A stretch of 64,000 bases of DNA from Candidatus Eiseniibacteriota bacterium (GCA_038060295.1 JBBTHR010000019.1:1582-65581), one strand, 5' to 3'. Counted from the stretch's first letter, positions 32,412 through 64,000 are shown. Notes: generated from the sequence alone by a model not told the origin. Numbers and translations: made by a program.

Positions 32412-32415
32412 CGCC

Positions 32416-33256: not shown

Positions 33257-33274
33257 GGAGGTTCCTTTCGTCAA

Positions 33275-33290: not shown

Positions 33291-33345
33291 GTGTACCGGT
33301 CGGGGCCGGAGCCGTCAACCGCGAGCCTGTGCTACAGTCCGGCAG

Positions 33346-43589: not shown

Positions 43590-43593
43590 CGGG

Positions 43594-48107: not shown

Positions 48108-48584
48108 TTATGACTCGGACGCCGCGGAAGCGACTTCAGCCGCGCCGAGGATCTCGATCGCGTCACCCGGCCGGACCGTGCCCGCGCGGAGCACCTTGCC
48201 GAAGATTCCTTCCTCGGGGAAGACGCACTTGCCCGTGAGCTGCATGATCTCGCAGCCGCTGTGGCACTTCTTGCCGATCTGGGTGATCTCGAGAAGCGCG
48301 TCGTTTCCGATCCGAAGCCGCGTGCCGACAGGGAGGGCCTTCAGCACGATCCCACGAGTCGTCAGGTTCTCCGCGAAGTCCCCGTGCTCGACCGTGAGAT
48401 TCCAGAGCGTCCGCGCCCGCGCATAGCTCTCGTCACCCAAGAGCGAGACCTGCCGGTGCCAGGCGCCAGCGTGGGCGTCGCCCTCCAGCCCCCAGTTCTC
48501 GACGAGCGAACCCTCGGCGATTCTCTGCTTTCGCGTGCGCCTCGCTTCCGAGCGGCAGACGGCGACGATGGACGGTTCGTTCAA
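48108..48584 (-). CDS. MOSC-domain protein (YiiM-like)
   Basis: The TTG start has GGAGG 5 nt upstream and overlaps the moeA stop (TTGA). SLVENWGLEGDAHAG...HRQVSLL and C-terminal IGKKCHSGCEI are present. Confidence 0.6.
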   Translation of the reverse strand: MNEPSIVAVCRSEARRTRKQRIAEGSLVENWGLEGDAHAGAWHRQVSLLGDESYARARTLWNLTVEHGDFAENLTTRGIVLKALPVGTRLRIGNDALLEITQIGKKCHSGCEIMQLTGKCVFPEEGIFGKVLRAGTVRPGDAIEILGAAEVASAASES

Positions 48585-49810
48585 GCGCGCCTCCAGGGAA
48601 GGGGGTGGACCCGCACCGGGGATCCGGCCGCCAGCGGGCGGCCCGGTCCTGGGGGGACGACGACGAGACAATCGTTCCCGAGAAACGAGCGGAGGAGATT
48701 CGAGCCCTGCCGTCGGTCGACGGTGACGCGCCAACCGCGTTCGCCCTCTTCCAGGCGCCCACGCAGAAATCGCGTCTTCGACTCGACGCGCGTGACCGGC
48801 GCCGTGAGCCGCGCGATCCACGTCTCGGGCGCTCCATGCGCTTCACCGAGCATCGCGCGAAGGGCGGGGCGCACGTATTCGCAATAGCAGACCACCGTGG
48901 AGGCGGGATTCCCCGGAAGGCCGAAGACCTTCACGCCGCGGCGGCTCCCGAAATAGAGCGGCTTGCCCGGCCTTTGAGCCACGTTCCAGAAAATCGTGCG
49001 CGTCCCGAGCGACGAGAGCGCGGGCCGCACGAGGTCGCGCTCTCCCACTGAAACGCCTCCGGTCGCGACCACGAGGTCGGCGCGCGCGCAGGCGCGCTCC
49101 AGGGCTTTGCGGATGTCAGTCGCCCGATCGCGCGCGTACGTCACGAGTGACGGCGAGATCCGGAACTCCTTCAAGGCCGACGCGAGAAACGCGGCGCTCG
49201 AGTCGTGGACCGCGTAGTCGGGCAACGAGCGCGCAGCCGGCGGGCGGACCTCGCTCCCCGTCACCACGATCGCCACGCGAGGCGCTCGGCGCACCTCGAC
49301 CTGCCGCACGCCGAGGATCGACAGGAGCGCGATCGCTCCCGGCTGGAGGCGCGTCCCTTTCGGGACGATGATGTCGCCGCGGCGGCAATCCTCCGCTGCG
49401 CGCCTCACGTTCCGTCCCGCGCGCACGGGACGCGTCACGAGGAGCGCGCCACCCTCGAGACGCGCCTCCTCCTGTGGCAGAACGGCATCCACGCCCGCCG
49501 GAAGCGGCGCGCCGGTCATGATGCGCACGGCGGCGCCCGACGCGAGGTGCGGGTCGGGTTTCGACCCCGCGAAAATGGCGCGCGGACGGAGCCGCAAACG
49601 AACCGGGCGCGCCCTCGTGGCGCCCCGTGTCGCTCGGCTCGAGAGGGCGTAGCCGTCCATGGAGGATGCCGTGAAGCGGGGTAGGGCGAATGGCGCGCGG
49701 AGATCTCGGATCGTGATCCTCCCATCCGCGTCGGGAAGCCGCACTCGTATGGCCGGCATCGGCCGCGTCCGCGCGAGGATCAGCCGCAGCGCTTTCGCCG
49801 CCGGAATCAC
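48581..49810 (-). CDS. moeA: Molybdopterin molybdotransferase MoeA
   Basis: FTASSMDGYAL and LVVATGGVSVGERD are present. The GTG start overlaps the tauE-like stop (GTGA). Confidence 0.8.
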   Translation of the reverse strand: MIPAAKALRLILARTRPMPAIRVRLPDADGRITIRDLRAPFALPRFTASSMDGYALSSRATRGATRARPVRLRLRPRAIFAGSKPDPHLASGAAVRIMTGAPLPAGVDAVLPQEEARLEGGALLVTRPVRAGRNVRRAAEDCRRGDIIVPKGTRLQPGAIALLSILGVRQVEVRRAPRVAIVVTGSEVRPPAARSLPDYAVHDSSAAFLASALKEFRISPSLVTYARDRATDIRKALERACARADLVVATGGVSVGERDLVRPALSSLGTRTIFWNVAQRPGKPLYFGSRRGVKVFGLPGNPASTVVCYCEYVRPALRAMLGEAHGAPETWIARLTAPVTRVESKTRFLRGRLEEGERGWRVTVDRRQGSNLLRSFLGNDCLVVVPPGPGRPLAAGSPVRVHPLPWRRA

Positions 49811-50559
49811 AGCGCCTTCGCTCCGTTCAGGACCGCCACGACGACGAGCACCGCCCCGAAGACGCGCTGCGTCCACACCGTCGGGAGCCATCGCACGGCG
49901 GCGAACGCCCCGGCGATGGCGCCGACAACCGCGGCGGCGCCGAGCGGGATCCAGAGGTCGAGCACGGGCTCGATGCGGGTCAGGTGCCCCGCGAGACCCG
50001 CGGCGGAGTTGAAGAAGACGAACCCGCTCGTGATCGCGGGGACGGTCTCGAGATCGCCCGCGCCTCGAAGAAGGAGAATGGGGGCGAGGTAGACGCCGCC
50101 ACCGATCCCGGTCATTCCCGCGAGGAGGCCGATCCCGAGGCCGACGATCAGAAGCGCGCCGTTCGACATTCCACCTCGCCCGCCGTCACGCGCGACCGCG
50201 CGGCGGAGCCTCGATCCAAGCAGGAACCGCAGTCCCGCGAGGAGAAGCGCAAACGCGAGGAGGAACAAGAAGTGACGCTCGCGCAGGGGAACAAGCCCGC
50301 CGGCGAACGCCGCGGGGATCGATGTCGCGAGAAGCGGCGCGAGAATGGAGTAGGGAACGCGGCCGGCGCCATGAAAGCTCGCATACGCGCTTCCCGCCAC
50401 GAGGAGATTCAAGCTCAGCACCAGGGGAGGAATCTGGGTATAGGGGACGTCGGTGAGGCTCAGGACCGCTGCGTAGGCGGTGGCGCCGCCGAGGCCGACC
50501 GACGCGTAAGCCGAGGCAATCAGCGCGAAGGCCGGTAGCGTCCAGAGCGGGGCGTTCAT
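49807..50559 (-). CDS. TauE/SafE-family anion exporter embedded in the MoCo operon
   Basis: A 250-aa, 8-TM protein with an internal repeat (GLGGATAYAAVLSL and GIGGGVYLAPILLL). The ATG overlaps the moaC-mogA stop (ATGA). Confidence 0.7.
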   Translation of the reverse strand: MNAPLWTLPAFALIASAYASVGLGGATAYAAVLSLTDVPYTQIPPLVLSLNLLVAGSAYASFHGAGRVPYSILAPLLATSIPAAFAGGLVPLRERHFLFLLAFALLLAGLRFLLGSRLRRAVARDGGRGGMSNGALLIVGLGIGLLAGMTGIGGGVYLAPILLLRGAGDLETVPAITSGFVFFNSAAGLAGHLTRIEPVLDLWIPLGAAAVVGAIAGAFAAVRWLPTVWTQRVFGAVLVVVAVLNGAKAL

Positions 50560-51470
50560 TCGGGGTGCCCCCCGCCGGCAATCATCGCCGCCGCGTGAAG
50601 GAGCGCCGGGAGGAGCGCGGCCAGCGATTCGCGGACCCCCTTGGGACTCCCGGGCAGATTGACGATCAGCGTCCGGCCACGGATCCCCGCGATGCCGCGA
50701 GAGAACATCGCCTTCGGCTCCCGCGCCTGGCCGAAGCCGCGCGCCGCCTCCGCGATGCCGGGCGCCTCGCGCTCGATCACCGCGCGGGTGGCCTCCACGG
50801 TGACGTCCCGCGGCCCCAATCCGGTGCCACCCGTCGTCAGCACGAGATCGCACGCGCCTTCGTCGCAAAGCCGGCGCAGCGTCCGATCGATCACCTCCTG
50901 GTCGTCGGGAATCGACTCCGGCGCCGACGCCGCGACGCCATGCGCTCCCAGGATCTCCACGATGGCCGCGCCCGAGGCGTCCTTCCGGCGGCCCGCGGCC
51001 ACGCTGTCGGAGATCACCACGACCGCGGCGCGGATCGGCCTCTTCGGCGCCTCGCCTCGGTCGGACGCGCCCCCACGCTTCTCGAGGAGCCTGACATGCA
51101 CGATCTCCAAGTCGTCGTCGAGCGGCTTGAGCATGTCGTAGAGGGTGAGCGCGGCGACGGTCGCGGCCGTGAGCGCCTCCATCTCGACGCCGGTCGCCCA
51201 CACCGCCGACACCGAGGCCGTGACCGCGATCGCCTCGGGTCGGATCTCGAACGCGACCTCGACGTGCGTGAGGGGAATGGGATGGCAGAGCGGGATCAGC
51301 TCAGGCGTTCGCTTCGCCGCCAGGAGACCCGCCGCGCGCGCCGCTTCGAGCACGTTTCCTTTGGGCACGCTGCCATTCCGCACGCGCTCGATCGTCTCCG
51401 GCCGGGCGCGCAGGAGCGCCTCGGCGCGCGCCGTGCGGTGGGTGCTCGGCTTCCCGGAGATGTCGCGCAT
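50556..51470 (-). CDS. moaCB: MoaC-MogA/MoaB fusion (cyclic pyranopterin monophosphate synthase fused to molybdopterin adenylyltransferase)
   Basis: The N-terminal half is MoaC (LIPLCHPIPLTHVEVAF...GVEMEALTAATVAALTLYDM). The C-terminal half is MogA/MoaB (AAVVVISDSVA...VLTTGGTGLGPRDVT...NLPGSP). Confidence 0.8.
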   Translation of the reverse strand: MRDISGKPSTHRTARAEALLRARPETIERVRNGSVPKGNVLEAARAAGLLAAKRTPELIPLCHPIPLTHVEVAFEIRPEAIAVTASVSAVWATGVEMEALTAATVAALTLYDMLKPLDDDLEIVHVRLLEKRGGASDRGEAPKRPIRAAVVVISDSVAAGRRKDASGAAIVEILGAHGVAASAPESIPDDQEVIDRTLRRLCDEGACDLVLTTGGTGLGPRDVTVEATRAVIEREAPGIAEAARGFGQAREPKAMFSRGIAGIRGRTLIVNLPGSPKGVRESLAALLPALLHAAAMIAGGGHPE

Positions 51471-51472
51471 CG

Positions 51473-52438
51473 CTAGCCTCCGATGCTCTGGATCTGGAGC
51501 CGGCGGGGGTCCTCGAGACCGGCGAGAACCGCGTTCCGTTCCGGCTTCGATGCCACGGCCCGGGCGAACGCGTCGCGGAGCGCATCGTCGCCGGCCCCCG
51601 CCGCGAGCAGGGGGACCAGGTCGACCTCCCGCGCGGAGAAGAGGCAGGGGCGGAGCGTTCCCCAGGCGGTGAGCCGCATCCGGCGGCACCCGTCGCAGAA
51701 GGGCTCGGACATCGTCGGGATGAACCCCAGACGCGCGCCCTCGTCGGTGACGAAGCGCGTCGCCACGCCCTCCGGCGCGAGGGGACGAAGCGCGCGCACG
51801 CGGCCGAGGCGCTCGCGCATCGTCCGAGCGCTGAGGAAGAGCCCCGGACTCCAGCCCGTGCCGCCGAGGGGCATGAACTCGATGAACCGCACCTCCACGT
51901 CCCGATCCGCGGCGAAGCGCGCGAAGTCGTCCAATTCGTCCGCGTTCCAACCGTCGAGCGCCACGGTGTTGATCTTCACGTGGTAGCCGAGTTCGCGGGC
52001 GAGTTCGAACGCGCGGAGCGTCGCCGCGAGATCTCCTCCGCGCGTGATCCGTTCGAACCGGTCGGGCCGCAGGCTGTCGATCGAGAGATTGATGCGGCGA
52101 AGGCCCGCGCTGTAGAGCGTCGCCGCGAACCGATCCAGACGACTCCCGTTCGTCGTGATCGAGAGATCCTCGATCCCCGGGAGCGAGCTGAGCCGCTCGA
52201 CGAGCGCGATGATGTCGCGGTACAGGAGCGGTTCGCCGCCGGTCAGCTTGATCTTCCGAACGCCGAGGCCGACGCCGACGGCCGCCAGGCGGAGGAACTC
52301 ATCGGTTTCGAGGTATCGGCGGGCCGGTCCCGGAGCGGGCCCGGGAGGGGGAGCGCAGTAAACGCAGCGGAAGTTGCAGCGGTCGGTGACCGAGATGCGG
52401 AGGTAGTCGATGGTTCGCCCGAATGAATCGACCAGCAT
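51473..52438 (-). CDS. moaA: GTP 3',8-cyclase MoaA (radical SAM)
   Basis: DYLRISVTDRCNFRCVYC and a C-terminal FCDGCRRMRLTAWGTLRPC. Confidence 0.85.
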   Translation of the reverse strand: MLVDSFGRTIDYLRISVTDRCNFRCVYCAPPPGPAPGPARRYLETDEFLRLAAVGVGLGVRKIKLTGGEPLLYRDIIALVERLSSLPGIEDLSITTNGSRLDRFAATLYSAGLRRINLSIDSLRPDRFERITRGGDLAATLRAFELARELGYHVKINTVALDGWNADELDDFARFAADRDVEVRFIEFMPLGGTGWSPGLFLSARTMRERLGRVRALRPLAPEGVATRFVTDEGARLGFIPTMSEPFCDGCRRMRLTAWGTLRPCLFSAREVDLVPLLAAGAGDDALRDAFARAVASKPERNAVLAGLEDPRRLQIQSIGG

Positions 52439-52525
52439 CGATCGCCTCCCGACTCCCGATCCCACGATTGGCACCCGGCGGCCGGTGCAAGCCGGATCGC
52501 CGGCCCAGCCGCCATCTGAACCATC

Positions 52526-52531
52526 TATAAT
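52526..52531 (+). promoter_or_regulatory. Perfect TATAAT hexamer 47 nt upstream of the mocA ATG, in the divergent moaA/mocA intergenic region
   Basis: Direct read. No good -35 hexamer lies at 17 bp spacing. Confidence 0.2.
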
Positions 52532-52577
52532 ACAGCACGACAGGGCAGCCACCCACGTACCCCGGAGCGATCACGAG

Positions 52578-53183
52578 ATGCCGGTTGGCGGCGTGGTCCT
52601 GGCGGCGGGCAGCTCCGCCCGGATGACTCGGCCCAAGCTGCTCCTCCCCTTTAGGGGCAAGCCCCTGGTCTGCCATGCCGTCGCGTGCATGGCCGGGGCG
52701 CCGGTCGCGCCCGTCGTCTGCGTCCTGGGCCACCACGCCCGGGACCTGGAAGCAATACTACGCTCGTACCCCTTCCCACAGCCCCTCCTCCTCCGGAACA
52801 ATGACGACTACCAGTCGGGACGCGCCTCTTCCGTGCGGACAGGGATCGAATCGCTGCCCGAGGAGTGCGCCGCCGCGGTCTTCCTCCCGGGGGACATACC
52901 GCTCCTCCGCTCGGAGGATGTCGCCGCGCTCGTGGCGCGGTTCGAGCGTACCGGCGCGTCCGTCGTCGTGGCGGTGGACGAGCAGGGGGAGCGGGCACAC
53001 CCCGTTCTCTTCGCGCGCGATCTCTTTCCGCGCCTCGCGGCGCTGTCGGGAGACGAGAGCGGCCAGGGGCTGATCCGGGAATACTGGGCGCAAGCCGAGA
53101 AGGTGACCGTGTCGCGATCGCGTTGCGTGGACGTCGACACCGAAGAGGACTACCGGCGCCTCCTCGCCGGGGAGGAAGGCTGA
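52578..53183 (+). CDS. mocA: MobA-like nucleotidyltransferase, probably MocA (Mo-MCD synthesis)
   Basis: GGVVLAAGSSARM...KLLLPFRGKPLV. Its position ahead of xdhC and the CoxL-type subunits supports the call. Confidence 0.65.
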   Translation: MPVGGVVLAAGSSARMTRPKLLLPFRGKPLVCHAVACMAGAPVAPVVCVLGHHARDLEAILRSYPFPQPLLLRNNDDYQSGRASSVRTGIESLPEECAAAVFLPGDIPLLRSEDVAALVARFERTGASVVVAVDEQGERAHPVLFARDLFPRLAALSGDESGQGLIREYWAQAEKVTVSRSRCVDVDTEEDYRRLLAGEEG

Positions 53184-53184
53184 G

Positions 53185-54024
53185 GTGCGGGACTTCTACG
53201 ATCGTGTCACCCGACTGCTGACGGAACACGTCTCCTTCGCGGTCGCCACCATCGTCAAGGTGGGCGGGTCGAGCCCGCGCGATCTCGGCGCGAAGATCAT
53301 CGTATTCCGGGCCGGCACGGTGGAGGGAACGCTGGGGGGCGGGAAACTCGAAGCCCAGGTGATCCGCGACGCGCTGGAATGCCTCGGCCGGCGTTCCGCC
53401 GCGACCAAGTCGTACTGGCTTTCCGACGAAGGGCTTGGAATGAAGTGCGGCGGCACGGTCGAAGTCTACTTCGAACCGGTCACTCCCGCGGCGCGACTCG
53501 TGATCTTCGGAGGCGGCCACGTGGGCCGCGCCATCGCGCGCCTGGCACCGTCGGCCGGCTTCGATGTCGAAGTCGTGGACGACCGCCCCGAGCACCTCGA
53601 CGCCGCGGCGTATCCCCCCGGAGTCCGGCTTCGGCCCACCGATCCGGAATTTCGCGACGGGTTCGAACCCCTTTCTTCCGAGGACTACGCCGTCGTCGTC
53701 ACGCGCGACGCGGCCACGGACGCCGCCCTCGCGGGCCGCCACGCACCCCACTGCGCCTATGTCGGCGTGATGGGGAGCCAGGCCAAGCGGGCCTACATGG
53801 AGCGCACGCTGGCCTCGACGGGAATCTCGAAGCAGGTCTTCGCCCGTGTGCGCTGCCCGATGGGTGTCGACATTGGGGCGGACACGCCGGAGGAGATCGC
53901 CGTGAGCGTCGTGGCCGATCTGATCTCCCTCCGCGCTTCGCGGCGGTCGTCGGCCGCCAAGGCCGCGGGCGAAGCCTCCCCTCGCAAGACGCGCGCCACC
54001 GGGAAGAAGCGGGTCGTCCGATGA
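53185..54024 (+). CDS. xdhC: XdhC/CoxI-family molybdenum hydroxylase maturation factor
   Basis: The XdhC_CoxI N-domain (FAVATIVKVGGSSPRDLGAKII) plus the Rossmann C-domain (LVIFGGGHVGRAIARLA). Confidence 0.75.
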   Translation: MRDFYDRVTRLLTEHVSFAVATIVKVGGSSPRDLGAKIIVFRAGTVEGTLGGGKLEAQVIRDALECLGRRSAATKSYWLSDEGLGMKCGGTVEVYFEPVTPAARLVIFGGGHVGRAIARLAPSAGFDVEVVDDRPEHLDAAAYPPGVRLRPTDPEFRDGFEPLSSEDYAVVVTRDAATDAALAGRHAPHCAYVGVMGSQAKRAYMERTLASTGISKQVFARVRCPMGVDIGADTPEEIAVSVVADLISLRASRRSSAAKAAGEASPRKTRATGKKRVVR

Positions 54025-54833
54025 AGCCAATCGCGGTCGTTCGAGGAGCAGGAGACCTCGCCACGGCCGTCGGCCGAAGGCTTCATCTCTGCGGCTTCTC
54101 CGTCGCCCATCTCGAGATCGCCCAGCCCACCGTCATCCGCCGCACCGTCGCGTTCGCATCGGCCGTGTTTCGAGGGCAAGTCACGGTCGAAGGCGTGGAA
54201 GCCGTCTTGGCTCCGGACGTCGCCGCGGCGCGATGGCTCCTGGAGCAGGGAAGAGTCGCCGTGCTCATCGATCCCGAAGCGGCAAGCATCGAGTCGCTCC
54301 GACCTGTCCTGGTCGTCGACGCCATCCTCGCCAAGAGGAACCTGGGGACGCGCCTCGACATGGCCCCGCGCGTCGTGGCCCTCGGCCCCGGTTTCGAGGC
54401 TGGCGTGGACGTTCACGCCGTGGTGGAAACCTGCCGCGGACACGATCTGGGACGGGTCTACACGTCGGGCGGGGCGCGGCCAGACACCGGTGTTCCGGGC
54501 GCGATCGGAGGCGTCGGCGCGGAACGGGTCCTCCGCGCCCCGGCGGATGGCACGATTCGCCCGTCGAAAGACATCGGGCAGATGGTCAAGCCCCAGGAGC
54601 TCGTCGCCGAAGTCGACGGCGTGCCGCTCCGATCGACGATCGGCGGCGTGCTTCGCGGGATACTCCACTCCGGCCTTTCTGTGTTCAAGGGCCAGAAGGT
54701 GGCCGACGTGGATCCCCGCGGAGACCCCTCGCTCTGCTTCACGATTTCCGACAAGGCCAACGCGGTCGCGGGCGGTGTTCTCGAAGCGGCATTTCGCGAG
54801 GGCGCCGGTCGGTCCCTTGTGACCATGGAGTGA
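54021..54833 (+). CDS. Second Rossmann-type accessory protein, resembling YqeB/EF2563-family molybdenum-hydroxylase system proteins
   Basis: MKPIAVVRGAGDLATAVGRRLHLCGFSVAHLEIAQP. The ATG overlaps the xdhC stop (ATGA). The family assignment is from memory of the N-terminal pattern and is not verified. Confidence 0.45.
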   Translation: MKPIAVVRGAGDLATAVGRRLHLCGFSVAHLEIAQPTVIRRTVAFASAVFRGQVTVEGVEAVLAPDVAAARWLLEQGRVAVLIDPEAASIESLRPVLVVDAILAKRNLGTRLDMAPRVVALGPGFEAGVDVHAVVETCRGHDLGRVYTSGGARPDTGVPGAIGGVGAERVLRAPADGTIRPSKDIGQMVKPQELVAEVDGVPLRSTIGGVLRGILHSGLSVFKGQKVADVDPRGDPSLCFTISDKANAVAGGVLEAAFREGAGRSLVTME

Positions 54834-54839
54834 ACTGAC

Positions 54840-55715
54840 ATGGCGATGCCGGCATTCCAGTTTCATCGTCCCCGCCGACTCGAGGATGCCCTGGCCCTCC
54901 TCGGCGACGCGGGAGCGGACGGGCTGGCGAAAGCGGGAGGCACCGATGTGATGGTGCTCCTGAAGCACGCCGCGGTCGCGCCGCGAGTGATCGTGGGGTT
55001 GTCGGCCCTGCCGGAGCTGAAGGGGATTCGCCTGGAGAATGGCGCCGTCTCGATCGGCGCCGGCACGACCATCGCGGAACTGGAGTCGGATCCGCTCCTG
55101 ACCCGCCACGCGCGTGGCCTCGTCGACGCCGCTCACCGCATGGCGACGGTGCAGATCCGCACGGTCGCCACCGCCGGGGGCAACCTGGCATCCGCCGCGG
55201 CCTGCGGCGATCTGGCGCCGGTCTTGATCGCCCTCGGGGCCACGCTCCACCTCCGCTCCTCGCGCGGGAAGCGCGTCCTGCCGCTATCCGATTTCTTCAC
55301 CGGCCCGCGCACGACGGTGCTTGCTCCCGGAGAGCTCATCACGCGCCTTCAGATCCCGGCCGCGGAGCCCGGGGCCGCTTCCTCCTATGTGAAATTCGGC
55401 TATCGCGGTGGCTCGCAGATCGCCGTGGTGTCGGCGGCCGTGTCGCTCGTCCACGAGAATGGAGCGGCGAAGCGGGTTCGCCTCGTTCTCGGGGCGGTGG
55501 CGCCGGTTCCGTTCAGCGTCAAGGGCGCCTCCGTTCTGGTGGGGCGTCCGGTCGAAGGGCCCGCGCTCGACGCGGCGTGCGCCGCGGCGGCCTCCGAGTG
55601 CCGTCCGATCTCGGACATCCGCGGCAGCGAGTCCTATCGGCGAGCCGTGGTCCCGGTCATCGCGCGCCAGGCACTGGAGCTGGCGTGGCGGCGGAGCAGA
55701 GGAATTGAATCCTAA
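54840..55715 (+). CDS. Molybdenum hydroxylase FAD-binding (medium, CoxM/XdhB-like) subunit
   Basis: GGTDVMVLLK...IGAGTTIAELE...TAGGNLASAAACGDLAPVLIALGA. Confidence 0.8.
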   Translation: MAMPAFQFHRPRRLEDALALLGDAGADGLAKAGGTDVMVLLKHAAVAPRVIVGLSALPELKGIRLENGAVSIGAGTTIAELESDPLLTRHARGLVDAAHRMATVQIRTVATAGGNLASAAACGDLAPVLIALGATLHLRSSRGKRVLPLSDFFTGPRTTVLAPGELITRLQIPAAEPGAASSYVKFGYRGGSQIAVVSAAVSLVHENGAAKRVRLVLGAVAPVPFSVKGASVLVGRPVEGPALDAACAAAASECRPISDIRGSESYRRAVVPVIARQALELAWRRSRGIES

Positions 55716-58557
55716 CGTCGAGCAGAGCCGGACAACGGCGACCGAAGCGACGGAAATCCTCCTCAGGCTCCGCGTGAATCGGCGCGACGTCTCGGTGGCC
55801 GCGCGCCCGAACGCGACCCTTCTCTCCGTCCTGCGGGACACGCTCCAGATGACCGGCACCAAGTGCGGCTGCGGCGAGGGAGACTGCGGAGCCTGCACCG
55901 TGCTCCTCGACGGCGAACAGGTGAACTCCTGTCTCTTCCTCGCGGCGGAGGCGCAGGGGACCGAGATCACGACGATCGAGGGCCTGTCCCCGAATGGCGC
56001 CCTCCATCCGGTTCAGAAGGCGTTCGTCGAGACCGGTTCGATCCAGTGCGGTTTCTGCAGTCCCGGAATGATCCTGTCGGCGAAGGCGCTCCTCGATCGA
56101 AATCCCGACCCGACCGACGAGGAAATCCGGAACGCGCTCGCCGGAAACCTCTGCCGCTGCACGGGGTACGTGCGGATCTTGGAAGCGGTGCGGCGCGTGG
56201 CGCACCCCGAGCTGCCGCGGCGCGTGGAGGAGGGCGAGAGCGACGACACCTTCTCCGTCGTGGGGAAGAGCGTTCCCAAGAAGGACGCCGCCGACAAGGC
56301 GACGGGGAAGGCGACCTACACCGGCGACTTCCGCCTCCCCGGGATGCTCCGTGGGAAGCTGCTCGGGAGCCCGCATCCCCACGCCAAGATTCTCTCCGTG
56401 GACACCAGCGAGGCGGAAGCGCTCCCCGGCGTCCACGCGGTCATCACGGCGAAGGACGTCCCGGACGTTCCGTACGGCGTGAGCCCGGCCCGTTACGACG
56501 AGCAGGTGCTCGCCGGCGACCGGGTCCGCCACGTGGGCGACGCCGTCGCTGCCGTGGCCGCCGAGGACGACGACACGGCGGAACGCGCCCTGGAGCTGAT
56601 CCGCGTCGAGTACGAGATCCTCCCCGGCGTCTTCGGGATCGAGGAGGCGCTCGACCCTGGCGCGCCGCAACTGCACGACGCCTATCCGCGGAACATCAAC
56701 ACCGAGATCCATCACGATTTCGGCGACGTCGACAAGGCGTTCGCCGAGGCGGACCTCGTCCGGGAGGACGTCTTCCGGGGCCAGCGGGCCATGCAGATCC
56801 CGCTTGAGCCGCACGTTTCGCTCGCGCGCGTCGAGTCGGACGGCCGCATCACCATCTGGACCGCGAACCAGGCGCCGCACTACGTCCAGCATCAGCTCTC
56901 GCGCGTGCTGGACGTGCCGATGGGCCGGATCCGAGTCGTGAAGCCGGCCATGGGGGGTGGATTCGGCGGAAAGGCCGAGGCCACCAGCCTCGATTTCTGC
57001 TCCGTGATCCTGGCGAAGAAGACGGGACGCCCCGTGCTCATGGAGTTCTCCCGGAAGGAGACCTTCCTGCACGGCCGGGGACGCCACGCGCAGGTCATCC
57101 GGCTCAAGACGGGCGTGCGCAAGGACGGCACGCTCCTCGCGGTCCAGGCGGACATCACGCTCGACGGCGGGGCCTATACCAGTTTCGGAATCATCACCTC
57201 GTACTATTCGGGCGTCATGCTCACGACGCCGTACCGCCTCCCCAACTTCCGGTTCGACGGGAAGCGCGTCTACACGAACCTCCCGGCCTGCGGGGCGATG
57301 CGAGGAAACGGCACGCCACAGCCGCGATTCGCCTTCGAGAGCCAGCTCGACCTGATCGCCGCGGATCTCGGCCTCGATCCGATCGAATTGCGACGGCGGA
57401 ACGCGCTTCACACGAACGATCTCACGGTGAACGAGTTCCAGATCACTTCGTGCGAGTTCCAGCAGTGCCTCGATCTCGTGGAGGAACGATCGGGCTGGAA
57501 GGAGAAGCGGGGAAAGCTCCCCTTCGGGAAGGGGATCGGAATCGCCTGCGGCTGTTTCATCTCGGGCGCGGGGTACCCGATCTACCGGAGTTCGTTCCCC
57601 CATTCCTCGGCGATCGTGCGACTGAGCGAGGACGGTACCTCGGCCATGGTCTTCGCGGGCGCCCCCGACATCGGCCAGGGATCCGACACGGTCCTTTGCC
57701 AGATGGCCGCGGAGGAACTTGGCCTGCGCTACGAGGACGTGAGCATCATCTCGAGCGACTCGGCCGTCACTCCGACCGACCTCGGGGCCTACGCGTCGCG
57801 CATCACCTACTTCGCGGGCAACGCGGTTCGAGACGCCGCGGCCGCCGCGAGGCGCGCCGTGGCGGAGGTCGTGGCGGAGGAGTGGGGCCTTCCGGTGGAG
57901 GAAGTCTCCTTCCGGAATGGGCATTTCCACTCGCCGGACGGCTCCAGAACCCGCTCGATCCAGGAGGCCGCCGCGCTTGCCTTCGGCAGGCGCGGACCGG
58001 TCGTCGGCAAGGGGGAGTATTCACCACCGCCTCTCGGGGGAAAATTCAAGGGGGCTCCGATCGGAACGTCGCCGGCCTACTCCTTCTGCGCGCAGGTGGC
58101 GGAAGTCGAAGTCGACACCGAGACCGGCACCGTTCGGGTGACCGACTTCTACGACGCCCACGACTGCGGAACCGTCATCAATCCCATGAACCTCCACGGA
58201 CAGGTGGAGGGATCGCTGGTCATGGGGATGGGCGAGAGCCTCTGGGAAGAAGTGATTCACAAGGACGGCAGGATCGTGAATCCGAACCTGCACGACTACC
58301 TGATCCCCACGGCCGCCGACGCGCCGCGCATCCATTCGTTCGTCGTGAAGTCGTACGACCCGGGTGGCCCGTTCGGCGCCAAAGAGGTCGGCGAAGGGGC
58401 GTCGCTCCCCGTGATGGGGGCGGTGGCCAATGCCGTGGCGAACGCGATCGGCGTCCGCCTGACCGAGTTGCCGATCACGCCGGAGAAGGTGCTGCGCGCC
58501 CTGGGAAAGATACCCCCGGACGCGGAGGGCCCCGGCACGGCGGTCTGTCGACTGTGA
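55705..58557 (+). CDS. Fused [2Fe-2S] small subunit plus molybdopterin-binding large subunit of a xanthine-oxidase-family hydroxylase
   Basis: The TTG start has an AGAGGAA SD upstream. The N-terminal ferredoxin domains (CGCGEGDCGACTV and CGFCSPGM...CRCTGY) continue directly into the Mo-cofactor domains. The protein is about 950 aa. The first 99 codons of the track ORF 55408-58557 are frame read-through over the FAD subunit. Confidence 0.8.
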   Translation: MNPNVEQSRTTATEATEILLRLRVNRRDVSVAARPNATLLSVLRDTLQMTGTKCGCGEGDCGACTVLLDGEQVNSCLFLAAEAQGTEITTIEGLSPNGALHPVQKAFVETGSIQCGFCSPGMILSAKALLDRNPDPTDEEIRNALAGNLCRCTGYVRILEAVRRVAHPELPRRVEEGESDDTFSVVGKSVPKKDAADKATGKATYTGDFRLPGMLRGKLLGSPHPHAKILSVDTSEAEALPGVHAVITAKDVPDVPYGVSPARYDEQVLAGDRVRHVGDAVAAVAAEDDDTAERALELIRVEYEILPGVFGIEEALDPGAPQLHDAYPRNINTEIHHDFGDVDKAFAEADLVREDVFRGQRAMQIPLEPHVSLARVESDGRITIWTANQAPHYVQHQLSRVLDVPMGRIRVVKPAMGGGFGGKAEATSLDFCSVILAKKTGRPVLMEFSRKETFLHGRGRHAQVIRLKTGVRKDGTLLAVQADITLDGGAYTSFGIITSYYSGVMLTTPYRLPNFRFDGKRVYTNLPACGAMRGNGTPQPRFAFESQLDLIAADLGLDPIELRRRNALHTNDLTVNEFQITSCEFQQCLDLVEERSGWKEKRGKLPFGKGIGIACGCFISGAGYPIYRSSFPHSSAIVRLSEDGTSAMVFAGAPDIGQGSDTVLCQMAAEELGLRYEDVSIISSDSAVTPTDLGAYASRITYFAGNAVRDAAAAARRAVAEVVAEEWGLPVEEVSFRNGHFHSPDGSRTRSIQEAAALAFGRRGPVVGKGEYSPPPLGGKFKGAPIGTSPAYSFCAQVAEVEVDTETGTVRVTDFYDAHDCGTVINPMNLHGQVEGSLVMGMGESLWEEVIHKDGRIVNPNLHDYLIPTAADAPRIHSFVVKSYDPGGPFGAKEVGEGASLPVMGAVANAVANAIGVRLTELPITPEKVLRALGKIPPDAEGPGTAVCRL

Positions 58558-58609
58558 TCGCGGGAAGGGGCGGAACGGCCGCCCTCAGACCGCGGCGCGA
58601 GGAGAGGCC

Positions 58610-59875
58610 ATGATCGAACCCGCGGCATCGGACCTGATCTACGAGTGGAACCAAGGGAACGATCCCGGAGACCGCCCGGCCGGAGTGGTGGAGGTCGCCG
58701 ACGAGACGCTCCGAGACGGGCTCCAGTGTCCCTCCGTGGCGGATCCGTCCATTGAGCAGAAGATCCAAATGCTCCATTTCCAGGCGCGCCTCGGCGTGCA
58801 CGGGGTGGATCTCGGACTGCCCGGCGCCGGCCCGCGTGTCCAGGCTTCGGTGCTCGCCCTGGCCAGGGAGATGGTCTCCGCCAAACTGCCCATGGAGCCC
58901 TACTGCGCGGCGCGGACGCACGTCGCCGACATCGACCCGATCATCGACGTGGTGCAGAAGACCGGGCTCGCGATCCACGCGGCGACCTTCCTCGGCTCGA
59001 GCCCCATTCGCCACTACGCCGAAGGGTGGGATCTGGACCGGCTCCTGAGGACGACGGAGGAGGCGGTCGGTTATGCGGTCCGGCACGGTCTCCAGGTCAT
59101 GTTTGTGACCGAGGACACGACGCGGGCGAAGCCGGAGATGCTCCGTCAGATCTACACGGCGGCGATCCATGCCGGTGCGAATCGAATCTGTGTCGCCGAC
59201 ACGGTCGGCTACGTGACGCCGCAGGGCATCACACGGCTGATCCGGTTCATTCGCTCCGTCGTGGATGCGACGGGTGCGAAGATCCCCATCGATTTCCACG
59301 GGCACCGGGATCGTGGCCTCTGCATCGCCAACGTGCTCGCGGCCTTCGCCGCCGGAGCCGACCGGGCGCATGGGACGATCCTCGGCATCGGCGAGCGGGT
59401 GGGGAACGCGCCGCTCGATCTTCTCCTGATCAATCTGAAGCTCCTCGGATGGCTCGACCGGGATCTGACGGCGCTGCCGGAGTATTGCGACCTGGTCTCG
59501 CGCGCCTGCGGCGTGCCGATCCCGCCGAGCTACCCGGCGTTCGGTCGGGACGCGTTCCGCACCGCGACGGGTGTGCACGCGGCGGCCGTGATCAAGGCGA
59601 AGAAGAAGGGGGACGCGGCCCTGGCGGACCAAGTCTACTCGAGCATCCCGGCCAGCATGCTGGGACTCACACAGGTGATCGATGTGGGACCGATGTCGGG
59701 CGAATCGAACGTGGTCTACTGGCTGGAGCATCACGGGTACGAAGCCGACCGCCCTCTCGTGGAGCACCTCTTCCGATTGGCGAAGGAGCGGGATCGCGTC
59801 TTCGAGAGCACGGAGTTGGAGGCGGCAATCGCGAAATTCCGCGCGTCGCGGAGCGTCGCGGGGTCGGCGTCATAG
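58610..59875 (+). CDS. HMGL-like / 2-isopropylmalate-homocitrate synthase family (DRE-TIM metallolyase) protein lacking the LeuA regulatory domain
   Basis: VEVADETLRDGLQ...IDFHGHRDRGLCIANVLAAFAAGADRAHGTILGIGERVGN (the HxH metal site). Confidence 0.7.
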   Translation: MIEPAASDLIYEWNQGNDPGDRPAGVVEVADETLRDGLQCPSVADPSIEQKIQMLHFQARLGVHGVDLGLPGAGPRVQASVLALAREMVSAKLPMEPYCAARTHVADIDPIIDVVQKTGLAIHAATFLGSSPIRHYAEGWDLDRLLRTTEEAVGYAVRHGLQVMFVTEDTTRAKPEMLRQIYTAAIHAGANRICVADTVGYVTPQGITRLIRFIRSVVDATGAKIPIDFHGHRDRGLCIANVLAAFAAGADRAHGTILGIGERVGNAPLDLLLINLKLLGWLDRDLTALPEYCDLVSRACGVPIPPSYPAFGRDAFRTATGVHAAAVIKAKKKGDAALADQVYSSIPASMLGLTQVIDVGPMSGESNVVYWLEHHGYEADRPLVEHLFRLAKERDRVFESTELEAAIAKFRASRSVAGSAS

Positions 59876-59928: not shown

Positions 59929-61890
59929 CTAGCGTCGTTCGGGGCGACTCGTTTCAGTTGGCCGGGTGGGGACAGGCGGGGGAAGGAAGGCCACATCGAG
60001 ATCCTGACCCGAATCAGCGGATCTTACGGTGCCTCCGTCGGGCGCCTCGGCTCCGCGCTGAACCACGAGCGCCTCCATGGCGTAGTACTCCGGCAGTCCG
60101 AGCTGATCGACCAGCCGCGCCGTTCCCTTGTTGCGCTCTTCCACGCGCTGCCAGAACTCGCGCTCGTCGACCCCGGGGAACGGCGCGCGGTCCTTCTGGC
60201 TCTGGTGCTTGAAGATGGCGCTGATCTTCAGCCGTAGTTCCTCCTCCGACATCGGTACGAGAATGTCGGCTTCGGCGATGGGCCATTCCTCCCAGGCTCC
60301 GCGATAGAGCCAGGTCTCCGGCGCCTCGCCGGAGTACCGCTCGAGCGCCAGTTCGATCGCCTCCTTGCACATGCGGTGCGTGCCATGCGGATCGGAGAGG
60401 TCTCCGGCGACGAGGATGATCTCCGGTCGATGCTCCTCGAGCAGGGAGAGGATGATCTCGACGTCCCGATCTCCGACCGGATCCTTCCGGACGCTCCCCG
60501 TCTGGTAGAAGGGGAGGTTCAGAAACCGGGACTGGTCCGGCCGCAGGCGCAGCGTCTCGATGGCGGATACCGCCTCGACCTCGCGGAGCCGGCGCTTGAG
60601 CATCTGGACCGTTTCGGAGTCCACCTGCCCCGGCTGCTTACGGTTTAGGAATTGCTCGACCTCCTCCAGTAGCGACCGCAGGCGGTCGTTCCCGTATTCG
60701 AAATCGCTCGCGGTTCGGCGTACGAATTCGAGGTAGCGGCGGACCTCGTGATCGAAGACGGCGATGTTGCCCGACGTCATGTACGCCACGACGATCTCGT
60801 TCTCGTTCTGGCGGAGCTTGTGGAGCGTTCCTCCAGCGGAGATGACGTCGTCGTCAGGGTGGGGGGAGAAGACAACGATGCGCCGCCCCCGGGGGAGCTT
60901 GCTGCGTCCGCGGATCTTGGTGCCGAGCGCGTTGAAGACGACCCCGTTCAGCGCGGCCGAGGAGCCGTGGCGGGCGAGGAGCGCGCCCAGATGGTGTTCG
61001 CGATAATCGCCGTCGGCCAGCTTGAGCACGGACTTCCCGGTGACTTGGGAGAGCCAGACGACCGCCTCGATCGCGAGGAGCGGGGTCCACTCGATTTCGC
61101 GGCGCAGCCAGGGCGTCTTCAGGCGGGTCAGATCCGCCGCGGCCGCAGGGTCGAGATAGACAGTCGCATCCGGGTGCTGTTGGAGATACGTCGCGGCCAC
61201 GGAGCGGTCGATGTCGCCCTCGACCGAGCGCCTCACGATCGCGGCCTTGTGCTCGCCCGTCGCGATGAGCGCGACCTCTCTGGCCTCGAGGATTGTCGCG
61301 ACGCCCATCGTGATCGCCTCGTTCGGAACGTTTTCGGTTCCGAAGAAGTCCGACGCGGCGACGCGGCGTGTGATCGTGTCGAGGACGACGAGGCGCGTGC
61401 GCGAACCGGGGCTCGATCCGGGCTCGTTGAACCCGATGTGTCCCGTCTGCCCGATTCCCAGAATCTGGAAGTCGATGCCGCCGGCATCCGCGATCGCCCG
61501 TTCGTAGTCGCGACAGTGCTCATTGACCGCGTCTCGGGGAAGGTCTCCGCGCGGAATGTGCACGTTTCGCGGGTCGATGTTGACGTGGTCGAAGAAATTC
61601 TCCCACATGAAGCGGTGGTAGCTATGAACGTTGTCCGGCGACATGGGGTAGTACTCGTCGAGATTGAACGTCTTGACCCGGGACCAATCGAGACCTTCCT
61701 CGCGGTGCATCCGGATCAGTTCTCGGTAGACACCGATCGGCGTCGAGCCGGTGGCGAGCCCGAGCACGGGCGTTCGTCCGCTCGCGTGCCGGTCACGGAT
61801 GATCTCGGAAACGCGCCGCGCGATGAGCTTCGCGATGAGGTCGTACGACTCCGTCGCGAGGACGGGGATTCGTTCGGAGTTCTCGTCCAT
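59929..61890 (-). CDS. nagB: Glucosamine-6-phosphate deaminase (NagB) fused to a PIG-L/LmbE-family deacetylase
   Basis: The N-terminus has LGLATGSTP...NLDEYY...ILGIGQTGHIGFNEPGS. The C-terminus has VVFSPHPDDDVISAGGTL and HPDH...DH motifs. Confidence 0.75.
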   Translation of the reverse strand: MDENSERIPVLATESYDLIAKLIARRVSEIIRDRHASGRTPVLGLATGSTPIGVYRELIRMHREEGLDWSRVKTFNLDEYYPMSPDNVHSYHRFMWENFFDHVNIDPRNVHIPRGDLPRDAVNEHCRDYERAIADAGGIDFQILGIGQTGHIGFNEPGSSPGSRTRLVVLDTITRRVAASDFFGTENVPNEAITMGVATILEAREVALIATGEHKAAIVRRSVEGDIDRSVAATYLQQHPDATVYLDPAAAADLTRLKTPWLRREIEWTPLLAIEAVVWLSQVTGKSVLKLADGDYREHHLGALLARHGSSAALNGVVFNALGTKIRGRSKLPRGRRIVVFSPHPDDDVISAGGTLHKLRQNENEIVVAYMTSGNIAVFDHEVRRYLEFVRRTASDFEYGNDRLRSLLEEVEQFLNRKQPGQVDSETVQMLKRRLREVEAVSAIETLRLRPDQSRFLNLPFYQTGSVRKDPVGDRDVEIILSLLEEHRPEIILVAGDLSDPHGTHRMCKEAIELALERYSGEAPETWLYRGAWEEWPIAEADILVPMSEEELRLKISAIFKHQSQKDRAPFPGVDEREFWQRVEERNKGTARLVDQLGLPEYYAMEALVVQRGAEAPDGGTVRSADSGQDLDVAFLPPPVPTRPTETSRPERR

Positions 61891-62407: not shown

Positions 62408-64000
62408 ATGTCGAACACCAAAGAGGTCAATCCCGTGAGTTCCTCGGTAGAACCGATCTCCTCCACGGTCACTCCGGCGGACATCGAAGCGATGATGACC
62501 CGTTTCGGTTACTCGCCCGAGACGCGGCAGATCATCGCGACGGAGAACCTGCTGCCGGCCGGGCTGCTCAGTCGGTTGCACGCGACGTATCCGCAGCACT
62601 CCGGGCTTCTCGAGCGGGGGAAGACCCTGTTCAGCGATTCCGATCACTACTCCGAGCTGGAGGGGTTCCGGCGTGTCGCCGAGATCCTGGAGCAGCACGG
62701 AATCCACCTCGGCGACATGACCGAGCGGGAGTTGTTCGTCGAAGTGTACCGCTTCAAGGTGTCGCGTCACGCGCTCAACAGTATCAACTGGAAGAACTAC
62801 CAGCGCGATTCGATGTTCCAGCTCATGTTCCCGCAGCCGGGAATGATGAAGGAGGAACTGCTCGACGCGTACACCGCCACGGCATCACCCGAAGAGCGGA
62901 CACGCATCGCCAGCGAGTACGTTCACAAGACCAACCCCCACGATGGCCATCAACTCCTGAACAAGCCGTGGATCGAACAGGACGACGGCGGGATCGACGT
63001 CGTCGAAGGCAGTCAGCACAAGTACCCGCAGTGCCAGCTCGTCTTCGACCGGACGACGCAGGAGTGTTTCGCCTTTTGCACCTACTGCTTCCGTCACGCG
63101 CAGGTCCGCGGTGACGAGGACATGTTCGTGCAGGAGGACGTCGCGCAGATCCACGACTACCTTCGCGGCCACCCTGAAGTCACCGATCTGCTCATCACCG
63201 GCGGGGACGCGGGATACATGCCCGTCGAACGACTGCGGCAGTACGTCATGCCGATCGTCGAAGACCGCCGCTTGCTGCAGGTGCGCACGGTCCGCCTCGG
63301 CTCACGCATGCTGACGTATCAGCCCGAGAGGGTCCTCACGCGGCAGTACGAGAAGATGCTGGCCCTGTTCGACGTCGTGCACGACAACGGGGTTCAATTG
63401 TCGTGGATGGCGCATTTCTCCACGCCACGGGAGCTGTTGAATCCCAGCACGATCGCCGCCATCCGCAGGCTCCAGCGACACGGCGTCGTGGTGCGCAGCC
63501 AAAGCCCCATCATGAACCACATCAGCCTGTTCACCGATGACCGGGGCCACGTGGACGTCCAGCGTTCGGCGCAGAACTGGATCGACCTGGCCAACGTGCT
63601 TGGGACGCTGCTGGTGCGCTTCCATTCGATGTACTGCGCCCGCGCGACCGGCGAGCATCACTATTTCACCGCGTCGCTGGCCGACATCGAGAAGATCGCC
63701 AACCTGGTCTACCGTTCGCTCTCATCGCTCAACCGGCCGTCGAGGTACATCACGATGACCACGTCCGCCGGCAAGGTCTCCATCCTCGGGACAGCCGAAG
63801 TCGGCGGGCAGACGGCCTTCGCGCTGAAGTTCAACGAGAGCCGGAACATGGCATGGATGGATCGCGTATTCCTCGCCAAGTACGACAGCCAGACGAACCG
63901 CGTCGACTTCCTGACGCCCTTCGACACGTCCGAGTTCTTCTTCGAGAAGGAGCTGCACGAGATCGAGCAGAAGCTGATCGACGTGCACCATCGGCGCCGG
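62408..64000 (+). CDS. KamA-family radical-SAM/PLP aminomutase (lysine 2,3-aminomutase-like) with an N-terminal extension of about 75 aa. It is 3'-partial (no stop in the window) and absent from the supplied ORF track.
   Basis: Translated by hand; GGAG lies 8 nt before the ATG. The C-x3-C-x2-C motif (CFAFCTYCFRH) follows HKYPQCQLVFDRT. LITGGDAGYMP, VRLGSRMLTYQPERV and the PLP-Lys region TMTTSAGK match KamA landmarks. At least 531 codons are open. Confidence 0.8.
   Translation, partial: MSNTKEVNPVSSSVEPISSTVTPADIEAMMTRFGYSPETRQIIATENLLPAGLLSRLHATYPQHSGLLERGKTLFSDSDHYSELEGFRRVAEILEQHGIHLGDMTERELFVEVYRFKVSRHALNSINWKNYQRDSMFQLMFPQPGMMKEELLDAYTATASPEERTRIASEYVHKTNPHDGHQLLNKPWIEQDDGGIDVVEGSQHKYPQCQLVFDRTTQECFAFCTYCFRHAQVRGDEDMFVQEDVAQIHDYLRGHPEVTDLLITGGDAGYMPVERLRQYVMPIVEDRRLLQVRTVRLGSRMLTYQPERVLTRQYEKMLALFDVVHDNGVQLSWMAHFSTPRELLNPSTIAAIRRLQRHGVVVRSQSPIMNHISLFTDDRGHVDVQRSAQNWIDLANVLGTLLVRFHSMYCARATGEHHYFTASLADIEKIANLVYRSLSSLNRPSRYITMTTSAGKVSILGTAEVGGQTAFALKFNESRNMAWMDRVFLAKYDSQTNRVDFLTPFDTSEFFFEKELHEIEQKLIDVHHRRR

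Follow-up and report, generated by a model that had tools for sequence, protein, structure and literature searches.

The 64,000-nucleotide stretch of DNA analysed here (the window), from Candidatus Eiseniibacteriota bacterium (GCA_038060295.1, JBBTHR010000019.1:1582-65581), contains at positions 52578-59875, on the plus strand, six genes grouped around a molybdenum enzyme that belongs to the xanthine oxidase family. The operon is real and well delimited, and the enzyme that it encodes is, judged by its sequence, a member of a large uncharacterised sister clade of HcrA, the alpha subunit of 4-HBCR (4-hydroxybenzoyl-CoA reductase). On balance, and with moderate confidence, we propose that it is a reductive aryl-CoA dehydroxylase of the 4-HBCR type, in which the iron-sulfur and molybdenum subunits are fused, the [4Fe-4S] loop of the flavin subunit is missing, and a dedicated cofactor maturation set is encoded alongside. 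The proposal draws on homology and genomic context, from which we infer the substrate, the direction of the reaction and the electron donor.

The group begins with a mocA-like gene (52578-53183, 201 aa; PF12804), followed by xdhC (53185-54024, 279 aa; PF02625 and PF13478), a yqeB-family accessory gene (54021-54833, 270 aa; TIGR03309), the gene for the flavin adenine dinucleotide (FAD) subunit (54840-55715, 291 aa; PF00941, FAD_binding_5, and PF03450, CO_deh_flav_C), the gene for the [2Fe-2S]-molybdenum fusion (55705-58557, 950 aa, TTG start) and an HMGL-like gene (58610-59875, 421 aa; PF00682). These limits reproduce exactly the six-gene layout of the original prediction, and an independent gene caller applied to the public contig gave six identical calls, the TTG start of the fusion included. 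Since the intergenic spacing from mocA through the fusion is only -11 to +6 nt, these five genes form one operon; the HMGL-like gene follows the fusion after 52 nt. Consensus scans of 47.9-62.5 kb, in a window of 63-73% G+C, gave zero promoter-like sites and no terminator-like sites above shuffle expectation, and are uninformative on operon limits.

The fused enzyme and its nearest relatives

The domain content bears out the earlier claim of a xanthine-oxidase-family cluster in which the iron-sulfur and molybdenum subunits are fused, the FAD subunit stands alone and maturation factors are encoded as well: besides the two FAD-subunit domains, the fusion contains Fer2 (PF00111), Fer2_2 (PF01799), the a/b hammerhead (PF01315) and MoCoBD_1/2 (PF02738, PF20256) within a single unbroken open reading frame (ORF). 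Residues 1-166 (55705-56202) make up a domain for two [2Fe-2S] clusters, equivalent to the gamma subunit (PF00111 and PF01799), in which the Cys motifs for both clusters are intact (residues 56-76 and 115-152). A linker of residues 167-184 (56203-56256) leads in the same frame of a continuous ORF to the HcrA-like molybdopterin-binding, or alpha, domain (residues 185-950, 56257-58557; PF01315, PF02738 and PF20256).

The possibility that the fusion is a frameshift artefact, with 55700-55720 as the place to look, was raised in the original prediction. That interval holds only the 11 nt in which the end of the FAD-subunit gene, with its stop codon, overlaps the start codon of the fusion, and the true junction of the iron-sulfur and molybdenum parts lies at about 56200-56260, inside one frame. 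The fusion is real rather than a product of assembly: the same 950-aa protein, without any difference, is encoded in at least three separate assemblies, and the best 120 homologues are all fused (120/120; 907-974 aa, 56-88% identity). With 92 additional fused loci that were retrieved, there are more than 200 full-length fused relatives in all. In a relative from the Pelotomaculum sp. PtaB.Bin013 metagenome-assembled genome (MAG; locus L024), the iron-sulfur and molybdenum genes lie in one frame and are split only by TAA, AGGAGG and ATG, and because nothing else separates them, fused and split forms must interconvert easily; fusion or fission is trivial here.

The molybdenum domain scores 956.7 bits on TIGR03194 (4-hydroxybenzoyl-CoA reductase alpha), the next model being XdhA at 595. 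Among proteins of known structure the ranking is led by HcrA of T. aromatica (1RM6_A, 596 bits), ahead of the D. gigas aldehyde oxidoreductase (AOR; 381 bits, its iron-sulfur domain included), bovine xanthine dehydrogenase (XDH; 323 bits) and CoxL (at most 288 bits). This does not agree with the earlier view that D. gigas AOR is the nearest type. The D. gigas protein (MOP, 1VLB/1SIJ) does resemble the window enzyme in that a single chain of some 900 aa unites the iron-sulfur and molybdenum domains, and in using molybdopterin cytosine dinucleotide (MCD), and differs in having no FAD subunit. The models for other families were likewise missed, namely those for XDH (NF043082, 595 against a cutoff of 780; TIGR03311, 554 against 830), for E. 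coli XdhD and YgfM (TIGR03313, 468 against 1102; TIGR03312, 60 against 242) and for aldehyde oxidoreductases (NF045668, 526 against 1100; PaoC, 333 against 1180).

Pocket residues were mapped from a phmmer alignment and from the motifs of bovine XDH. Gln389, Tyr501 and Glu897 correspond to Gln214, Tyr326 and Glu726 of HcrA and are invariant in the 120 fused homologues; Glu897 stands for the catalytic Glu (bovine Glu1261) and Gln389 for the Gln that contacts Mo=O (bovine Gln767). At the positions that, judged by the bovine XDH motifs, probably correspond to Glu802 and Arg880, the window protein has Ala424 and Ser502, and on this mapping the molybdenum domain has no equivalent of either XDH residue. 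The clade is marked by a pocket signature of its own, Tyr500-Tyr501 together with G-x-F-(V/I)-S-G-A-G-Y-P-I-Y, where HcrA has Leu-Tyr and S-H-F-V-S-G-T-S-T-P-K-H.

The company that the relatives keep points in the same direction as the family placement. The pair of FAD and fusion genes is conserved throughout the related loci, with the FAD partner seen upstream of the fusion in about 80 of 92, and in most exceptions the fusion lies near a contig end. In a number of relatives with 52-75% identity the pair lies within benzoyl-CoA-pathway clusters, next to class I benzoyl-CoA reductase (BCR). The nearest of those outside the window's own clade (L008 and L019, 74-75% identity, from Acidobacteriota / Thermoanaerobaculia MAGs) show the order CoA ligase, Oah-like hydrolase, short-chain dehydrogenase/reductase, thiolase, Dch-like hydratase, mocA, xdhC, yqeB, Had-like Zn-dehydrogenase, FAD subunit, fusion, BcrC, BcrB, BcrA and BcrD, with BcrC, BcrB and BcrD exceeding their NCBIfam cutoffs. 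A 64% relative lies directly downstream of a BCR-like cluster of four genes (two HGD-D and two BcrAD_BadFG by Pfam) with a ferredoxin, the proteins of which resemble the Bcr proteins of L019 only weakly. Nearly all the active-site positions examined are common to the window protein and the BCR-linked protein P0016. In total, BCR, Oah-like or Had-like genes occur within 10 kb in 17 of the 48 fused-clade loci whose flanks reach 8 kb or more, and in 11 of the 28 whose flanks reach 15 kb or more. Because the pathway occupies a few kb of a multi-megabase genome, this association should be far beyond chance.

The Pelotomaculum locus (L024, 3176-9770) carries in order a PaaK-like CoA ligase, the FAD, iron-sulfur and molybdenum subunits and YqeB. 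Its unfused molybdenum subunit is 56% identical to the window domain, bears the clade pocket signature and, at 1148.6 bits, passes the TIGR03194 cutoff.

The FAD subunit is of the CoxM/CutM-like (beta/medium) type, its best match of known structure being CutM at 141 bits. It aligns to HcrB with 56 bits only (residues 119-284 on 157-322, an offset of 38 residues). Both this alignment and the Cys count of 3 in 291 aa indicate that the [4Fe-4S] loop insertion of HcrB is not present in the window FAD subunit, nor was it found in the partner FAD subunits of any of 80 fused loci. Cys-rich stretches in nine partner subunits were considered as candidates for the insertion and rejected, being situated around a conserved GGN-x-C motif. 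Three FAD subunits upstream of fusions (L048, L072 and L073) have an extra Cys pattern around this motif, for example GGNFCGAVPCADTPPVC, which is distinct from the HcrB loop and may be a small metal site.

Proposed reaction and alternative readings

We suggest that the enzyme consists of two polypeptides, the FAD subunit and the fused subunit that carries two [2Fe-2S] clusters and the molybdopterin, and that it would form benzoyl-CoA by reductively removing the para-hydroxyl of an aromatic acyl-CoA, which most likely is 4-hydroxybenzoyl-CoA or else a compound much like it. The substrate had been called unknown; with moderate confidence it can be narrowed to a compound of the 4-hydroxybenzoyl-CoA type, given the relatives in benzoyl-CoA-pathway clusters. 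By analogy with 1RM6 and with Ucdh, electrons would enter at the FAD subunit and reach the MCD-bound molybdenum by way of the two [2Fe-2S] clusters in the N-terminal domain of the fusion. Because the FAD subunit is without the [4Fe-4S] loop by which HcrB takes up electrons from ferredoxin, the donor is probably, by analogy with Ucdh, NAD(P)H or else a carrier that docks in another way.

The nearest characterised relative of the molybdenum domain is HcrCAB of T. aromatica (PDB 1RM6/1SB3), which reportedly strips the hydroxyl from 4-hydroxybenzoyl-CoA during oxygen-free aromatic breakdown. By analogy, the two would have in common the cofactor chain of FAD, two [2Fe-2S] and Mo-MCD; the equivalents of Gln214, Tyr326 and Glu726 are retained, and the relatives of the window enzyme stand beside benzoyl-CoA reductase genes, as this function would predict. 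HcrCAB consists of three separate subunits, whereas gamma and alpha form one 950-aa polypeptide in the window, and its beta subunit has a [4Fe-4S] loop of about 40 residues for ferredoxin entry, unlike the loop-less, CoxM-like beta of the window. The window system differs further in its altered pocket residues, its alpha, beta and gamma scores below the model cutoffs, the attached YqeB and the lack of benzoyl-CoA genes in the window.

A functional model for a loop-less reductive enzyme is offered by Ucdh (UcdCFO) of Enterocloster bolteae, a reductive phenol dehydroxylase and the second reductive enzyme within the xanthine oxidase family, which uses MCD, needs XdhC and MocA and takes NADH as its donor (PMC12771579, PMC11760930). 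Its FAD subunit lacks the [4Fe-4S] loop, as in the window, and we consider it the best available analogue. Ucdh differs in having three separate subunits, in being, as reported, only about 33% identical to HcrA, and in acting on a free polyphenol lactone rather than a CoA thioester.

Several observations weigh against a 4-HBCR-type function. The curated TIGR03194 cutoff of 994.55 is missed by 38 bits, with a score that is nevertheless 361 above the next family; the BCR-linked fused relatives fall below it as well, at 922 and 984 bits. Identity to HcrA is low (41% over 744 columns), and the FAD and iron-sulfur parts fail the HcrB and HcrC models, the FAD subunit reaching 117 bits on TIGR03195 (HcrB) where the cutoff is 405. 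The pocket departs from that of HcrA in Tyr500 for Leu325, Asn535 for His360 and GCFISGAGYPIY for SHFVSGTSTPKH, and no characterised member of the fused clade was found in the literature searched. There are no genes for BCR, aromatic CoA ligase, Oah, Dch or Had in the 64-kb window, and none of the five loci of the closest clade (81-89% identity) has benzoyl-CoA-pathway genes. Finally, the organism has a cbb3 oxidase, with which an oxidative role is possible. Many of these facts would suit an enzyme that works oxidatively, a hydroxylase or dehydrogenase whose substrate is a different aromatic compound, an N-heterocycle or an aldehyde, with electrons running from substrate through molybdenum, iron-sulfur clusters and FAD to NAD+ or a quinone-type acceptor. 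This reading, which corresponds to the AOR-plus-flavoprotein idea of the original prediction, we think unlikely yet give more weight than any other competitor. It would account for a CoxM/CutM-like FAD subunit without the low-potential [4Fe-4S] entry and for the 31 of 48 well-flanked fused-clade loci that have no aromatic-CoA context, and a relative with 43% identity on pSymB of S. meliloti has as its neighbours nucleobase permease, amidohydrolase and UbiD genes. That homologue, although by identity about as near as HcrA, was rejected as a functional guide: it scores 588 on TIGR03194 and is without the clade signature, lacking both the Tyr-Tyr pair and GAGYPIY. Also against the oxidative reading are the AOR models, which were missed by a wide margin, and the orthologs with 74-75% identity, which have the same pocket residues and sit between Had-like and BcrCBAD genes.

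The presence of a YqeB over the model cutoff with an adjoining MocA-like gene recalls E. coli, E. faecalis and clostridia, and by this analogy suggests another reading: a hydroxylase of the classical selenium-dependent kind, acting on purines, xanthine or nicotinate. The selenium-dependent molybdenum hydroxylases (SDMHs) known so far all use purines or nicotinate (PMC2276186, PMC11448449, bioRxiv 10.1101/2025.04.24.650524), and E. coli K-12 has the same architecture, with ygfM (FAD) followed by xdhD (fused iron-sulfur and molybdenum, 956 aa) adjoining yqeB, yqeC and mocA. The accessory set of MocA, an XdhC-like module and a YqeB module is also held in common. XdhD is, however, only 32-36% identical to the window fusion, a common architecture in a different clade; in E. 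coli the XdhC-like and YqeB modules form one 541-aa protein with YqeC adjacent, whereas the window has two genes and no YqeC; and the ygf/yqe context is one of purine catabolism, unlike that of the window, where ygeW/X/Y, hyuA, ssnA, ygfK and purine permeases are all missing. The SDMHs themselves (E. barkeri nicotinate dehydrogenase, 3HRD; clostridial XDH, purine hydroxylase and DOPDH) are xanthine-oxidase-family enzymes of organisms with YqeB, and the 3HRD subunits match the window proteins at 269, 209 and 164 bits; they differ in their purine or nicotinate substrates, in belonging to other molybdenum-domain clades and in a demonstrated selenium dependence. The XDH, Se_dep_XDH and Se_sel_red models stand at 595, 554 and 468 bits, all under their cutoffs, against 957 for HcrA, and the presumed Glu802 and Arg880 positions are Ala and Ser, all of which makes a purine or nicotinate hydroxylase very improbable. 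An aerobic carbon monoxide dehydrogenase (CODH) of the CoxSML type, to which the CutM and CoxM flavoproteins as best structural matches of the FAD subunit might point, is effectively refuted. The original prediction had named the CODH CuSMo signature as evidence that would tell against its own reading; the AYRCSFR / AY.CSFR motif is absent from the fusion, the aligned loop reading CGAMRGNGT, TIGR02416 gives 304 bits against a cutoff of 991 and the CoxL models as a whole 304-372 against 950-991, and coxD, coxE, coxF and coxG are not present.

A further idea, that the molybdenum enzyme and the HMGL-like protein form one pathway with C-C formation or cleavage on the product of the former, had been hinted at in the original prediction. 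The HMGL-like protein scores 161 bits on PF00682, its best NCBIfam match is 212 bits against a cutoff of 517, with all specific models far under cutoff, and its best match of known structure is homocitrate synthase (6KTQ, 140 bits). It appears from its sequence to be a DRE-TIM enzyme of the homocitrate/isopropylmalate-synthase type without the regulatory domain. The gene is on the same strand as the fusion, no terminator-like site was detected within the 52-nt gap, and it is found downstream in the window and in 5 of 5 closest-clade loci (at least 81% identity); L021 has it at 79% identity by tblastn, though the gene call there is a 317-aa product without Pfam match. It is missing from all 87 other fused loci (below 80% identity), the orthologs with 74-75% identity included, and the closest clade (81-89%) is too shallow for independent synteny evidence. 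In addition, it is hard to see how a Claisen condensation of 2-oxoacids with acetyl-CoA would connect to an aryl-CoA product. The hint of a C-C step is thus weakly supported, the linkage being seen in the closest clade and not in the more distant loci; we consider a common pathway improbable and regard the HMGL-like gene as a neighbour, possibly co-transcribed, rather than a demonstrated pathway partner.

The layout had also been described as unlike the known types. It has precedents in E. coli ygfM-xdhD and in E. faecalis EF2570, a fused CoxS and CoxL protein next to yqeB (PMC2432076), and what is new is the combination of an HcrA-clade molybdenum domain, a gamma-alpha fusion, a loop-less beta subunit and YqeB. 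Automated pipelines often name the fused family "4-hydroxybenzoyl-CoA reductase alpha" (many JGI names), and yet it differs from the studied 4-HBCR in three structural respects, the gamma-alpha fusion, the missing [4Fe-4S] loop and the altered pocket. Should the fused enzyme dehydroxylate 4-hydroxybenzoyl-CoA, many uncultured lineages among the Acidobacteriota, the Thermoanaerobaculia and their relatives probably rely on this form. This would affect how the breakdown of phenol, p-cresol and lignin monomers is read from sediment and groundwater metagenomes, and would prompt one to ask what drives a thermodynamically demanding reduction without the extra cluster.

Cofactor maturation and the question of selenium

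The mocA product has TIGR03310 as its best NCBIfam match, at 139 bits (cutoff 186). As a molybdenum cofactor (Moco) cytidylyltransferase it would yield MCD, and its presence fits a 4-HBCR because that enzyme uses MCD (PMC12771579). The XdhC-family protein is a Moco chaperone or insertion factor.

The gene unit reaches further upstream, in the form of a divergent Moco-biosynthesis operon (48108-52438, minus strand) that starts 139 nt from mocA; both promoters presumably lie within this intergenic region (52439-52577). The operon consists of moaA (51473-52438; GTP 3',8-cyclase, 321 aa, TIGR02666 322.6 bits, cutoff 284), with its start taken from independent calls on the public contig; a gene for MoaC fused to a MoaB/Mog-type domain (50556-51470, 304 aa; PF01967 and PF00994, public contig gene call); a TauE/SafE-family membrane permease gene (49807-50559, 250 aa; PF01925); moeA (48581-49810, 409 aa, for molybdenum insertion into molybdopterin; PF03453, PF00994 and PF03454); and last a MOSC-domain protein gene (48108-48584, 158 aa; PF03473), which overlaps moeA by 4 nt. 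Neighbouring genes throughout overlap by 4 nt or stand 2 nt apart. The divergent pair of operons is also present in the closest relatives L007, L020 and L021, the MoaC-MoaB/Mog fusion likewise in L020 and L021, and the MOSC-domain gene is kept in L006, L007, L020 and L021. As this operon adjoins the mocA operon, most steps from GTP to the inserted, cytidylylated cofactor are encoded at the locus.

In the route that we envisage, the products of moaA, moaC/mog, tauE, moeA and the MOSC gene would deliver molybdopterin-bound molybdenum, MocA would add CMP to give MCD, and XdhC and YqeB would hold, finish and insert the cofactor. In view of what is established for MOSC domains, the MOSC protein is a candidate carrier of sulfur (or selenium) and donor of the terminal chalcogen ligand of molybdenum. 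The TauE/SafE anion permease gene overlaps each of its neighbours, moaC/mog and moeA, by 4 nt and has the same position in L020 and L021. Its product may transport an oxyanion that the cofactor requires, either molybdate or a species of sulfur or selenium; no link to TauE was found in the literature on selenium comparative genomics.

The 270-aa accessory protein, entered in the original prediction as a second Rossmann-only protein, belongs to the YqeB family (TIGR03309, 335 bits against a cutoff of 220; no Pfam match), which had gone unrecognised. In E. coli YqeB (541 aa) an XdhC-like half and a TIGR03309 half are joined in one chain, and the adjacent window genes xdhC and yqeB match the two, with 31% identity to the N-terminal and 51% to the C-terminal half. 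Among isolate replicons, the window YqeB is 52% identical to that of P. acidaminophilum and 45% to that of E. faecalis, with E. coli and haloarchaea inside this range of 45-52%; past this group there is an abrupt fall to 37% or less, the same fall-off that is given by Haft and Self for the selD-linked YqeB family (PMC2276186). An AlphaFold (AF2) model (pLDDT 93.9) predicts a Rossmann-like N-terminal domain and a biotinyl/lipoyl-like barrel-sandwich C-terminal domain, and a search of the PDB gave no full-length match to it. YqeB has so far been tied only to selenium-dependent molybdenum enzymes; C. difficile requires yqeB for selenium-dependent purine use, as it does selD (PMC11448449).

The accepted signature of the selenium-cofactor trait is YqeB together with YqeC and SelD (PMC5029168). 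The first of these is present in the window. YqeC (TIGR03172) was found there neither by Pfam/NCBIfam annotation nor by tblastn with the YqeC of E. coli and L025, and SelD neither in the window nor in about 100 related loci; selD is usually not adjacent to yqeB (PMC2432076). A YqeB above cutoff recurs beside HcrA-like enzymes of several distinct lineages, in the window clade, L008/L019, L010 (304 bits), L069 (273 bits), the Pelotomaculum locus and L033. The last, from an organism with about 40% G+C, is the only locus seen with both YqeB and YqeC near the family: an operon of yqeC (137 bits, cutoff 73), mocA, yqeB (256 bits) and xdhC (16225-19359, minus strand) lies 3.5 kb from a fused homologue (9968-12709) that has benzoyl-CoA-pathway-like neighbours. 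A second XDH-family molybdenum subunit (19654-21915) on the other side of the operon makes the assignment ambiguous.

Conceivably, then, YqeB-linked HcrA-like reductive dehydroxylases depend on selenium, with a terminal selenido ligand replacing the sulfido, in the window clade, the BCR-adjacent Thermoanaerobaculia clusters, the Pelotomaculum enzyme and the YqeC-bearing locus. We regard this as doubtful, a lead and not a finding. It would fit with the reductive working of DOPDH, which is selenium-dependent and removes oxygen from urate (bioRxiv 10.1101/2025.04.24.650524). Literature searches found nothing that links selenium-dependent molybdenum enzymes with 4-HBCR, and for Eisenbacteria they turned up no paper on selenium or on benzoyl-CoA. 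If the selenium reading is right, the range of the labile-selenium cofactor would widen from the fermentation of purines and nicotinate to anaerobic aromatic-ring degradation and to phyla not known to have the trait. The recurrent YqeB linkage bears on what YqeB does and which enzymes use that cofactor.

Surroundings of the operon

Proteins 82-88% identical to those of the window, in the same synteny, occur in L005, L006 and L007, and the MAGs of this group are labelled variously as Bacteroidota, Hyphomicrobiales and Candidatus Eisenbacteria, a pattern that resembles mis-binning or transfer in the very recent past. The taxonomic labels of the clade are untrustworthy. A recurring three-gene block that is not in the window was seen in L002 (8055-9083), L008 (8036-9088), L010 (about 8100-9124), L011 (8015-9025) and L019 (8063-9100).

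Downstream and convergent with the HMGL-like gene is a gene (59929-61890, minus strand) for NagB, glucosamine-6-phosphate deaminase, fused to a PIG-L/LmbE-type deacetylase (NF002557, 868 bits). It is followed by a long ORF (62408-64000, plus strand; 537 aa on the public contig) with no Pfam or NCBIfam match, and beyond the end of the window the public contig continues with CoA-transferase subunits, an aminotransferase and a thiolase. At the other end of the window lies the cbb3-type oxidase (3-3941, plus strand), whose CcoN and CcoO are encoded by a single fused ORF (NF011053, 896 bits), followed by CcoP and CcoG; these genes show that the organism is capable of respiring oxygen at low tension. 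A P-type heavy-metal ATPase (5048-7597) comes after ccoG. Directly upstream of the Moco operon region, four hybrid histidine kinases/response regulators (PAS, CHASE4, Hpt) occupy 38131-47187, and an arsenic-resistance-like trio of an ArsR-family regulator, a low-molecular-weight phosphatase/ArsC-type protein and an SBF/ACR3-like permease is located at 31317-33331 (minus strand). A set made up of a GcvT-like aminomethyltransferase, two amine-oxidase-type flavoproteins and a Rieske ring-hydroxylating oxygenase alpha subunit (25782-31301, plus strand), about 22 kb from the molybdenum operon and with no evident link to it, may serve in the demethylation of methylated or aromatic amines.

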